DNA from: an uncultured Candidatus Actinomarina sp.
GTDB taxonomy: Bacteria; Actinomycetota; Acidimicrobiia; Actinomarinales; Actinomarinaceae
Direction of reading: 5' to 3'
Assembly: GCA_902634185.1 (NCBI GenBank)
Contig: CACPJC010000003.1
Location: 32,369-96,368, forward strand
DNA: 64,000 nucleotides
Below, piece after piece: positions 39,004 to 46,932 of this stretch. Under the pieces are notes generated by a model. That model made no database searches and had not been told where the DNA came from. It saw nothing but the letters and a program-made list of their open reading frames with translations. How positions within the stretch are numbered: the stretch's first letter is position 1; the number at the start of each line of letters is the position of its first letter. Position numbers and translations under genes: made by a program.

Positions 39004-42000
39004 TAGTTTTCTTTTTCGATAAGATGTAAAAAGTATTACACCACCAACTAAAAATACTGAACCGCTTATGACAATATAGTCTAAATTTATTCCTGTAGCT
39101 GCCAAGGCTATACTATCCTCTCGATAGATGTAGGTAACGTTGTAACTACCATCAGTGAAATATATGTCATCATCATCATCCCACTCTAGAAAGTCATTTC
39201 CAGTTTCATCAGTAAGAGGTGCTTCACATATATCATCCTCTTCTAATATCATATCCTCACAAAAGTCATCCACTAATGGATCCGTTGGGTCTGGATCCGT
39301 TGGGTCAACTATACACTCAAGAAGTTCTTGTAAGTTTGTTGGATTACAAAATTCTTCTGGAGCAGGATCCGTTGGGTTTATAGGATCAGGATCTCTTGGA
39401 TCAATTGGACCTGGATCTGGATCTGTAGGATCAGTTGTTGTAGTTATTGTAGGATCAGTTGTTGTAGTTATTGTAGGATCAGTTGTTGTAGTTGTTGGGC
39501 AATCAACTGTAAAGCTTGGACCCCAACGTTTCCAACCGCCTGAAAAAGAATTAGAAGTTGTAGAGGTTTTGTATCTCCATCTAACGTTTTGTCCGCTTGG
39601 AACATTTACAGATCCCCTTTCTGAGCTACCTGGTGGAACAGATCGATTAGAAACGAGTGTTGACCAGTTTTTTCCACCATCTAGGGAATACTCAGCTAAG
39701 AAATAAGCATTCGCATTTGAAGAGTCGGAGTTAGCCATATTGAAATGTATGAGTTTTGCACCTCCTGAACATTCCTCTCGTGTATTTGAAACAGAAGGGT
39801 TAATTATTGGAGGTCCTGGCAGTGTTGTTGTAGTTGTTGGACAATCAACTGTAAAGTCTGGACCCCAACGTTTCCAACCGCCTGAAAAAGAATTAGGAGT
39901 TGTCGAGGTTTTGTATCGCCATCTAACGTTTTGTCCGCTTGGAACATTTACAGAGGCCATTTCTGAGCTACCTGGTGCAACAGATTGATTAGAAACGAGT
40001 GTTGACCAGCTTTCCCCACCATCTAGGGAGTACTGAGCTAAGAAATAAGCATTTGCATTTGAAGAGTCTGAGTTAGCCATATGGAAGTGTGTGAGTTTTG
40101 CACCTCCAGAACAAGCATTTCGAGTATTTGAAACAGAAGGGTTAATTGTTGGAGGTCCTGGCAGTGTTGTTGTGGTCGTTGGAGACGGATCATCAATACA
40201 ATCTAAAACTTTCTTGGTACCACCTTTTGTTTTTCTACCACTTAGTTCATCTTTAATAATAAAACGAAGTTTATATGTAGATCCATTTGGGACAGATAAA
40301 AGTGTAGTTAAGTCTCGTGTTTCTCCAGCAGCAATACTAAAAGTTTGATCAACAACTTTGGCTTTGTTTATTCTAATTCTCATTCTAATTGTTATGCCAA
40401 CAGTTGACCTTGAGTTATCTACAATTAAACCAATTCTCGCAGTTCCATCATCATTACATTCCATGAAGTTTGCAATCCTAAAATCTACTCTTGGAATTTC
40501 AACTGTTGTAGTAGTAATTTCCGGCAGTGTCGTAGTAGTTGTTGTAGTTGTAGTAGTTGTAGTTGTAGTTGTAGTAGTTGTAGTAGTTGTAGTTGTAGTA
40601 GTAGTGGTTGTTGTTACAACACAGCTAGCCGTATATGAAAGAGTAGGATCTACGCCTGGGATATCTGTATCTTCAGTCACCCAAGTACTACTGTCATGAG
40701 CGCCTCCAGATTTTCTTGAACTATATCTCCATTGAATACTTTCTCCATTAGCTAATGCGGGAGCAGAATACGTCTCCGATGAAGTAGCTGGTACCTCTTC
40801 ATCATCTTTCAATTGTGTCCAGTTAGAGCCACCATCAGTTGAGTATTCCACCCTATAAAAGACTGAGACAGTCGAATCAGAACCGCTACTAAGAGTTATT
40901 GAAGGTGTTTGTGTCTGAGAATCAGAACATGATCCTAGTGATGTTGAAACACTAGCGCACGATATCGTAAGCTTCGATCCTATCTCTGTCCATGTTGACC
41001 CACCATCAGTTGAATACCTATGTTCACGTCCAGTACCATTTGCTATTGCAGTATTTACCGCAAATTCTTGTGTAGCGCCAGCATTTATTGACTTACCACT
41101 GTCTTCACCGGTAACACTGCCTCCAAAATATGCCCAATCCCCAACATTTCCAGTCACCGCATTGGTTGCTCTTTTTTGTACTAAAAATGTAATAGCGACA
41201 TTACTTCCGCTGTTGTCGACAGTTATTTTAATTTTACCCATTGTGCCGCCCTGGCTTGTGCCGTTATTTTTACAACCATTTGTTTCGTGAGAAACAGCCG
41301 GAGCAATAACGGGACAATCAATAGTTATTGTTGAAAGTGTTACCTCTGATTGGCTGAGTCCCTCTGATGAGTTAGCAACAGAGTATTTTATGATTACCGA
41401 GGTATCGTGACTTAGTGCTGGTACGGAAAGTGAGGAGGAGTCTGTCGCTCCAGCTCCAACGGTTGTAGCAGTTAATACTGTAAAGTTTGATCCCCCGTCA
41501 GTTGAGTAGCTGACGGTGAATGTTCCAGCAGCGGTTGAATTTGTATTTATAAGAGTAATTGGGATTGCTGCACTTCCACTCGAACAACTTGCAGCAGTTG
41601 CTGTGGCAGTAGCATTAAGTATGGGGCAATCTATCTCAATACTGCTTAGGTTGGTTGTTGAAGCAGATGAAAAGTCGGTACTTGATGAGGTCTGATAACG
41701 AATATAGACGGTAGTGTCGTTTGTAAATGATGAACCTGAGAGACTAACAGTAGAGGTTGAGTCTGCTCCAACTAAAACATGAGATCCTCCGATACCGTCT
41801 GTCCAGGTTGAGTTATCTGTAGAGTATTGAACTTTAAAATAATTACCAGAACCCTGTCCAGTATTGTCAAGGAGTACGTTTATAGGTGCTCCCCCACCTG
41901 AACATGTTCCATGCGTTGCAGAGACTGCTGGTGTTGTACAACTGACTGTGGCACTATTTAAACTAGCACCAGTGACATAATCTCCTGAGAATGATCCAGA

Positions 42001-46932: not shown

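Follow-up and report, generated by a model that had tools for sequence, protein, structure and literature searches.

We analysed a stretch of 64,000 nucleotides from an uncultured Candidatus Actinomarina sp. (contig CACPJC010000003.1, positions 32,369 to 96,368), hereafter referred to as the window, and describe here a giant gene in which a putatively surface-exposed ectodomain, a cell-wall sorting signal and a sortase are encoded together. The gene is a single open reading frame (ORF) of 3003 amino acids (aa), read from a GTG start on the minus strand (37921-46932). The interpretation that we favor, and consider reasonably probable, is that the product is a giant fibrillar surface protein of the monoderm Ca. 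Actinomarina that is fused to its own sortase and is self-anchoring. The architecture, the conserved fusion, the fold class of the modules and the variation in length and sequence among strains are shown below; its export, its disulfides, its cleavage, its attachment to the wall and its biological role are predictions based on its topology and on established sortase biochemistry. An initial annotation of this gene had focused on its repeats; the two elements that define the mode of attachment, LAATG as a sorting signal and a sortase fused at the C-terminus, were overlooked. All coordinates are positions within the window, and module labels (M1-M19) run from the N- to the C-terminus. The gene is organized as follows:

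37921..46932, minus strand: whole gene, with a GTG start and the stop codon at 37921-37923; likewise a single ORF in the 4 complete orthologues
46762..46932, minus strand: N-terminal leader, aa 1-57, with two hydrophobic stretches by hydropathy, a KK motif, and AFA followed by SS
45853..46761, minus strand: N-terminal head domain, aa 58-360, hypervariable and all-beta
40621..45852, minus strand: core array M1-M16 of Cys-bracketed Asp-box beta-sandwich modules, aa 361-2104
40528..40614, minus strand: poly-Thr linker, aa 2107-2135, with 29 residues here and 26-30 in orthologues, made of imperfect ACN codon repeats
40198..40497, minus strand: M17, basic, wall-proximal, with no Asp-box and exactly two Cys (2159 and 2245)
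39499..40197, minus strand: M18 and M19, a recent tandem duplicate with 91% nucleotide identity
39106..39498, minus strand: Pro/Thr-rich spacer (TTTTDPTI three times, a 24-nucleotide (nt) repeat), then an acidic segment
39007..39105, minus strand: cell-wall sorting signal, consisting of LAATG, transmembrane (TM) helix 1 and RKRK, in frame and with no stop after it
38593..39006, minus strand: predicted cytoplasmic loop of ~138 aa, from hydropathy and charge topology
38530..38592, minus strand: TM helix 2, aa 2781-2801, the predicted signal-anchor of the sortase, in-to-out by hydropathy
37924..38529, minus strand: extracellular linker, aa 2802-2872, and class-E-like sortase domain, aa 2873-3003

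Towards the end of the gene the sequence reads ...EDSIALAATG-IN-LDYIVISGSVFLVGGVILFTS-Y-RKRK (signal at aa 2610-2642); that is, a pentapeptide is followed by a hydrophobic segment and a basic tail. LAATG occupies aa 2610-2614 (39091-39105), TM helix 1 aa 2617-2637, and RKRK aa 2639-2642. After RKRK the frame runs, with no stop codon, for 361 further residues into the sortase. No other sorting signal was found in the 64-kb window. A 481-aa protein encoded downstream, which has a C-terminal hydrophobic stretch and KARR, was considered as a second substrate and rejected, as it lacks LAxTG and is a multipass membrane protein. When the anchor region alone was used as a query for stand-alone substrates that share the stalk base, only 4 short, uninformative fragments were returned.

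The C-terminal domain matches the Pfam sortase family (PF04203) with 102.6 bits against a cutoff of 26.6 (E = 1.6e-29, aa 2875-2994), and TIGR01076 with 81.3 against a cutoff of 39.35. The best-scoring sortase class is the NCBIfam class E (NF033747), at 104.4 bits, below the curated cutoff of 160 for that model; we therefore refer to the domain as class-E-like, i.e., as a divergent enzyme of unproven specificity. By alignment, its catalytic residues are His2919 (in AGHR), Cys2980 (in TLTTC) and Arg2989, which match those of the solved sortase chains 5UUS and 5GO5; the motifs GPGHY, AGHR and TLTTC...R align to both chains. The top matches in the PDB are 5UUS, 5GO5 and 5GO6, which we take to be class E enzymes, their database names being just sortase or secreted proteins. 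In SrtE1, Tyr229 in the beta3/beta4 loop reads the Ala at P3 of the substrate. A candidate counterpart of this residue is Tyr2902, which lies in GPGHY, 17 residues ahead of the catalytic His, and aligns with the GxGHY of 5UUS and 5GO5.

Class E sortases recognize LAXTG rather than LPXTG, and in SrtE1 the TM anchor is preceded by ~100-200 aa of N-terminal cytoplasmic sequence that matter for function (PMC5148588). Both features are found in the giant protein: its cognate signal is of the LAXTG type, and the TM anchor of its sortase is preceded by a cytoplasmic extension and a basic cluster. This loop is charged and coiled-coil-like, ends in a strongly basic stretch ahead of TM helix 2, and matches the class E cytoplasmic extension by position. 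The charge distribution fits a hairpin, in which the ectodomain would be outside, TM helix 1 would lead in, the loop would be inside, and TM helix 2 would lead out again to an external sortase domain. In this protein, the cytoplasmic extension of the sortase would be joined to the cytoplasmic tail of the substrate.

Homologues were collected with the last 414 residues as the query, which gave more than 90 proteins, and 93 matches (P0001-P0093) were scanned for the signal. An [LM]AxTG motif with a TM helix and a basic tail, ~366 aa ahead of the catalytic Cys, is present in 55 of the 93, down to 42% identity, and the only variants of the motif in these 55 are LAATG, LAETG, LADTG, LANTG and MADTG. 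The fusion is present in all homologues whose length covers the junction. The gene is carried by 8 Ca. Actinomarina (OCS155) assemblies, 4 of which have enough upstream sequence and contain one ORF from leader to sortase. Across 6 Actinomarina genomes, the C-terminal 394 codons are colinear, with zero indels, and third positions account for most substitutions, be it in the sorting signal, the junction, the loop, TM helix 2, the linker or the catalytic domain. A missing stop codon or an assembly artefact is ruled out by this codon-position pattern and by the conservation of the arrangement in independent single-cell and metagenome assemblies. Judged from these sequences, the substrate-sortase fusion is real and conserved.

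Two distant homologues, P0072 (locus L014) and P0068, at 42-43% identity, have retained the sortase together with its loop, a sorting signal in the form of LANTG or MADTG, and a stalk base that is M17-like or acidic; conservation of M17 extends to distant relatives of the anchor cassette. P0072 occupies the same genomic position (tetR-like gene ... rho), and its ectodomain sequence appears unlike the Asp-box modules. Such comparisons suggest that the anchor-sortase cassette is the part that is conserved, and the ectodomain the part that can be exchanged. P0106, the nearest non-fused relative of the sortase, was considered as a source of an unfused substrate; the gene upstream of it encodes a glycosyltransferase, and it is uninformative on the origin of the fusion.

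The ectodomain consists largely of beads. About 15-20 Cys-bracketed modules of ~100 aa, thought to be Ig/FN3-like beta-sandwiches, had been proposed at the outset, and this description agrees with our results. Counting from Cys positions gives 19 modules, namely 16 contiguous ones (104-119 aa) and 3 past the poly-Thr linker (M17-M19, aa 2146-2478, 39499-40497), and the motifs that had been quoted are present (G[ST]CS-type 16 times, YSxDGG 13 times, WRYK-type 15 times and TVDC-type 16 times). The Cys bracket, also pointed out at that time, is the most conserved feature: the only invariant columns in the 19-module alignment are C14 and C106 of the unit, one near its start (GSC) and one at its very end (TVDC). 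An AlphaFold2 model of a single module, for which the 19 modules of the window served as the input alignment, is confident and all-beta (mean pLDDT 96.5, pTM 0.86). It shows a sandwich of ~100 aa and of the seven-stranded type, each module being an independent domain, and resembles solved FN3/Ig-like domains at the level of the fold only (best Foldseek match, E = 1.6e-3). Because neither fn3 (PF00041) nor any Big_* family of Pfam matches the protein at E<=0.1, the modules are FN3-like by fold only.

Weak Pfam matches to PF21471 (Reelin subrepeat B), PF03174 (CHB_HEX_C) and PF02012 (BNR) are all centered on YSxDGGSxW and span just the motif-bearing half of the profiles. The match to PF21471 scores 64.3 for the whole protein against a cutoff of 27, and consists of one stretch in M16 that covers positions 59-121 of 127. 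On its sequence, the central YSxDGGSxW is an Asp-box, a beta-hairpin motif that occurs in several folds (PMC2716378). We rejected the possibility that the modules are blades of a sialidase-type BNR propeller: the Asp-box is present, yet each module models as an independent sandwich. A Reelin-type domain was also considered; the Pfam evidence for it is at the level of the motif, and the model is an FN3-like sandwich. A search with the module profile against 1.84 billion cluster representatives returned 431 proteins at E<=1e-3. Those that match the full-length profile are few and mostly metagenome fragments, and the long, distant ones are SprB-repeat or fn3 proteins matched partially. The beads thus constitute a family that is FN3-like, carries an Asp-box, is narrowly distributed, and is neither described nor covered by a Pfam model of its own.

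When each GSC is paired with the next TVDC, zero Cys residues of the ectodomain are left unpaired, in the window protein as well as in all 4 complete orthologues. Because the two Cys are the sole invariant residues, because this pairing leaves no Cys over, and because M17 has that pair alone, we infer that the modules are stapled by disulfides. Cys63 probably pairs with Cys361 around the head domain. The model of the head has a pLDDT of 58.7, and its generic matches to propellers are a hint that this domain is possibly a beta-propeller. At the other end of the ectodomain, the acidic segment before the anchor contains two close Cys pairs and a conserved GNDFxxWD...YFTDGxY motif. The G+C content over the module array (window 40001-46000) is 0.41-0.42, versus 0.27-0.39 elsewhere in the window, probably a result of its Ser/Thr/Gly/Ala-rich composition (54% S+T+N+G+A) and not of foreign origin.

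The gene is length-variable, as had been suspected: the 4 complete orthologues measure 2342, 2583, 2867 and 2869 aa, versus 3003 aa here, and have 13-18 modules, versus 19 here (12-16 in the core and 1-3 past the poly-Thr linker in complete genes). The source of this variation is a separate question. The initial annotation had attributed it to near-identical nucleotide copies of the module, with identical strings of more than 60 nt shared between non-adjacent copies and driving ongoing unequal crossing-over or gene conversion. We examined the DNA by a k-mer scan, a longest-common-substring scan and the codon-aligned pairwise identity of the 19 modules (171 pairs). The k-mer scan found no exact direct repeat of at least 50 nt in the whole gene, and repeated 40-mers are confined to the 24-nt microsatellite at 39424-39497. 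No two modules share a string of more than 38 nt; this maximum occurs in the adjacent pair M18/M19, followed by 28 nt in M9/M10, also adjacent, and 25 nt in M4/M7. M18/M19 lie outside the region for which the long strings had been reported. The median codon-aligned identity between modules is 43%, and identity at third positions is 37%, versus 32% expected from composition. Just 5 of the 171 pairs reach at least 75%, namely M18-M19 (91%), M4-M7 (84%), M2-M4 (79%), M2-M7 (79%) and M9-M10 (76%), and M18-M19 alone reaches at least 90%. Tandem Repeats Finder reports two module-length arrays only, with periods of 342 and 318, which are the young pairs. Similarity is thus confined to the amino-acid level in most of the array, and extends to the DNA in three small sets. 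For the most part, the modules are old paralogues, each specific to its position, that are alike at the protein level only, and the long identical strings that were to drive exchange do not exist. The only truly identical repeated DNA in the gene is in the poly-Thr tract (40528-40614) and the 24-nt unit, present three times at 39424-39497; both are plausible slippage sites.

Comparison between strains points to a different process. The leader (81-93% identical), the anchor-sortase part (82-97%) and the flanking genes (82-98%) are well conserved, in contrast to the head domain, which is 23-32% identical between the window and the orthologues, except for 71% to L002, and to the core array, which is 41-51% identical, except for 82% to L003. 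Because different segments have different nearest relatives, the gene is a recombinational mosaic. Between the window and L003, M11-M17 are 95-100% identical (M14 95%, the other six 98-100%). The N-proximal region of L003 (M1-M10) is rearranged: M5 and M7 are absent, extra copies resembling M8/M9 are present, and an M18-like module stands in place of M10. This module 10 of L003 (AH-321-A09; locus aa ~1335-1425) is 82% identical to M18 of the window and lies inside the core array, and modules can therefore cross between the two sides of the poly-Thr linker. The copy number of the M18-type module is 0, 1 or 2 among strains. The order M13-M14-M15-M16-polyT-M17, by contrast, is kept in all orthologues, with positional identities of 42-78% between most strains; the array is therefore not homogenized by concerted evolution.

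These data bear directly on the alternative that near-identical nucleotide repeats, through intragenic unequal crossing-over or gene conversion, are the main source of variability. In its favor are the 91% identity and the variable copy number of M18/M19, the recognizable relatedness at the DNA level of M2/M4/M7 (79-84%) and M9/M10 (76%), and the extra M8/M9-like copies and the M18-like module inside the core array of L003. Nonetheless, as a general explanation we regard this alternative as unlikely, given that no exact repeat reaches 50 nt and the maximum between two modules is 38 nt, that the median identity is 43% with third positions near random, that the order of M13-M17 is positionally conserved while its positional orthologues are so divergent, and that head, core and stalk differ in their nearest relatives, as expected from an exchange of divergent allelic segments between strains. 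These comparisons suggest that, as the main source of variation, allelic segments of deep divergence have replaced one another in a mosaic fashion, with local gain, loss or transposition of modules in the N-proximal half and at M18/M19, where DNA similarity exists.

We propose the following mechanism for the assembly of the protein on the cell surface. The leader has at aa 27-57 a KK motif, a hydrophobic core and AFA|SS, as recognized from sequence and hydropathy, with AFA|SS as the likely signal-peptidase site. This leader would export, through the Sec pathway, an ectodomain of ~2,550 residues, comprising the head, 16 beads, the poly-Thr linker, 3 beads, and the Pro/Thr-rich and acidic stalk base. 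Export would be arrested at the LAATG-TM1-RKRK sorting signal, and the chain would then loop, over ~138 aa, through the cytoplasm, until TM helix 2 re-exports the C-terminal class-E-like sortase domain and places it beside the LAATG of the same or a neighboring molecule. Cys2980 would cut the bond between Thr2613 and Gly2614, and the acyl-enzyme would be resolved by a peptidoglycan amine, such that the ectodomain becomes linked to the wall and a two-TM sortase remnant stays in the membrane. The array of beads would be a rigid extender, holding the variable head at a distance from the wall; at an estimated ~4 nm per bead, 19 beads and the linkers would reach several tens of nanometres. The head, and the number and identity of the beads, differ sharply among co-occurring strains, which would be due to recombination between deeply divergent alleles, with occasional duplication, loss and transposition of modules. 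The variation is most likely driven by diversifying selection on the exposed surface, e.g., by phages, grazers or ligand specificity, since a conserved anchor combined with a hypervariable distal head and beads is the pattern expected of a surface structure under such selection. No genes for mycolic-acid synthesis were found in this order, and an outer membrane is deemed unlikely (PMC7771536); a wall-anchored fibril would therefore be exposed. With moderate confidence, we propose that the function of the protein is that of a wall-anchored extender presenting a variable binding head.

Several observations weigh against this interpretation. A canonical sorting signal is found at the extreme C-terminus of a protein, whereas that of the giant protein is internal and not followed by a stop, and this is likewise the case in all orthologues. 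The sortase scores below the curated cutoff for class E. The fold of the head domain is predicted with low confidence, and an adhesive role is a guess, given that the cell is free-living and planktonic. The first two points are equally those that favor a second alternative, namely that LAATG-TM1 is left unprocessed. The product would then be a two-pass membrane protein with an ectodomain anchored in the membrane and not in the wall, and with a sortase that is tethered or that serves other substrates. We consider this scenario quite improbable, because the [LM]A-x-T-G motif, with its spacing of 2-3 residues to the helix and with the basic cluster, is kept down to 42% identity while its surroundings diverge; because the motif fits the specificity class of the attached enzyme (PMC5148588); and because a plain TM hairpin would have no need for it. 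Self-anchoring in the wall thus remains the reading that we prefer. More tentatively, the giant gene could be a one-gene anchoring system, in which the LAATG of the own or a sister chain would be cut once per molecule. It would then comprise perhaps the sole sortase and the sole substrate of these ~1.1-Mb genomes, and the enzyme would have been reduced to an effectively single-turnover, stoichiometric 'self-stapling' module of a hypervariable fibril, encoded by a second hypervariable locus that has been overlooked beside the known glycotype island.

The last alternative, that the fusion is only apparent, either because a separate sortase starts at the internal Met2644 or because the continuity of the ORF is an artefact of assembly or annotation, is very hard to sustain: although there is an ATG after the basic tail, both in the window and in its close relatives, and many database entries are 360-aa proteins beginning at Met2644, no stop intervenes in the window, in the 394 codons of the 6 Actinomarina genomes or in the junction-spanning homologues, and an internal start would leave the read-through from the upstream frame intact. 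M2644, directly after RKRKL, is moreover replaced by Leu or Ile in distant homologues, which means that a sortase with a start of its own is not general to the family. Three stand-alone sortase calls that might have represented unfused variants are artefacts that start at internal codons: P0024 and P0290 (360 aa) are products of contigs with frameshifts, where the reading frame of the sortase still includes LAATG, and P0033 (588 aa) is cut by an N-gap. Public names of family members are 'class E sortase, partial' or 'sortase A'. The loci L010, L011, L012 and L015 and the clusters P0001 and P0046 are systematically broken by long-read frameshifts, 100-N scaffold gaps or contigs that end inside the repeats. 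As assemblies and gene calls fail in this way at the repeat region, databases list the family as hundreds of truncated 'sortase' entries, in which the fusion is invisible.

Among known systems, the closest in its enzyme is that of SrtE1/SrtE2 and the chaplins of S. coelicolor (PDB 5CUW), with which the giant protein shares the sortase fold, the His-Cys-Arg triad and the GxGHY and AGHR motifs. It also has in common with class E systems a TM anchor after a long cytoplasmic extension, and, on the side of the substrate, L-A-x-T-G with a hydrophobic helix and a basic tail. In those systems, however, enzyme and substrate are separate, whereas here they are one polypeptide, in which the basic tail of the substrate runs into the cytoplasmic extension of the sortase. 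Engineered self-cleaving sortase fusions (BISOP, PMC2901362) are alike in that motif and sortase are in one chain and that cleavage could be intra- or intermolecular. Such fusions are artificial and soluble and are used in vitro, whereas the protein described here is natural, membrane-embedded and conserved across a bacterial order. In BISOP-type constructs the order is reportedly sortase-LPXTG-target, the reverse of that in the giant protein, which is target-LAATG-TM-loop-TM-sortase.

Dedicated pairs of sortase and substrate include the class GN 'marine sortase' (TIGR03784) with its adjacent target, and the pilus-specific class C sortases. Pairs of this kind have been remarked on (bioRxiv 10.1101/2023.06.07.544157). 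They resemble the present case in that one enzyme is genetically tied to one or a few clients and co-expressed with them; there, however, the genes are separate members of an operon, whereas here the coupling is translational. Giant surface proteins made of tandem beta-sandwiches include SasG/Aap, Ebh, Bap, SiiE, the RTX ice-binding adhesin MpIBP and the giants of the SAR11 hypervariable region. With these the giant protein shares a leader, an extender of Ig/FN3-like beads, a distal, putatively ligand-binding head and variation in the number of repeats; it differs from them in the Asp-box and the Cys bracket found in every bead, and in that the repeats are old and position-specific and not near-identical. 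Sialidase-type propellers, Reelin subrepeat B and the C-terminal domain of chitobiase have the S-x-D-G-G-x-x-W hairpin in common with the modules (PMC2716378), which, unlike the blades of a propeller, fold as sandwiches. A keyword search for natural sortase-substrate fusions in the literature, with incomplete coverage such that an earlier description is possible, found only engineered constructs, and the words 'sortase' and 'giant' are absent from two genome papers on Actinomarinales. The parts, that is, a class-E-like sortase, an LAXTG signal and an extender of tandem FN3/Ig-like domains, are known; their arrangement in one polypeptide was not found described.

The gene had also been called 'accessory-like' and hypervariable. 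It is indeed hypervariable, being far more divergent than its flanks; it is not accessory, as it occupies the same locus in every Actinomarina genome recovered, between hom-thrC and a series consisting of a TetR-like gene, two genes for Thr-rich envelope proteins, and rho. Because this position is constant in all relatives, including the 42%-identical homologue with a different ectodomain, the gene is core in position. The usual actinobacterial order is hom-thrC-(thrB)-rho. No homoserine-kinase-like protein was seen among the window genes between thrC and rho, an interval that is occupied by the giant gene and three companions (neighborhood in the window, 46987-48315 to 33586-34935). The companions adjoin the giant gene downstream, with no gaps (35051-37920, minus strand), are kept with it in every related locus, and may be functionally linked envelope genes:

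37291-37920, minus strand: TetR-like regulator, which starts at the base next to the stop of the giant gene
35842-37287, minus strand: 481-aa multipass membrane protein whose N-terminal ectodomain is Thr/Pro-linked
35051-35845, minus strand: 264-aa Thr-rich secreted protein with a HESLH (HExxH-type) motif

On the other side, just upstream of hom, the window encodes another large envelope protein, of 854 aa (49616-52180, minus strand), with matches to the peptidoglycan-binding family PF01471 and weak ones to reprolysin-like metallopeptidases. When hom and thrC were compared between strains (window 46987-49572), hom of the window was closest to L002 and L007 (95%, versus 91-92% to L003 and L008), and thrC to L003 and L008 (96%, versus 86%). 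Given these discordant relationships, a recombination breakpoint lies right beside the hypervariable gene.

In the textbook view, sortase anchoring requires two components, a free enzyme and clients that are tagged at the C-terminus. Here client and enzyme are naturally fused, and the fusion is conserved in a bacterial lineage that ranks among the most abundant of the surface ocean; it would show that the sortase reaction can be organized in cis or stoichiometrically, and would provide a compact natural scaffold on which self-anchoring or self-cleaving display systems could be built. The array of beads, taken alone, is an ordinary tandem Ig/FN3-like extender, though of an undescribed module family. 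The family also marks a blind spot of annotation, as the databases keep it almost only in the form of truncated 'class E sortase' fragments. For Ca. Actinomarina itself, the giant protein would be the major one exposed on this uncultured organism, and is thus the obvious candidate for a target of recognition by phages or grazers.

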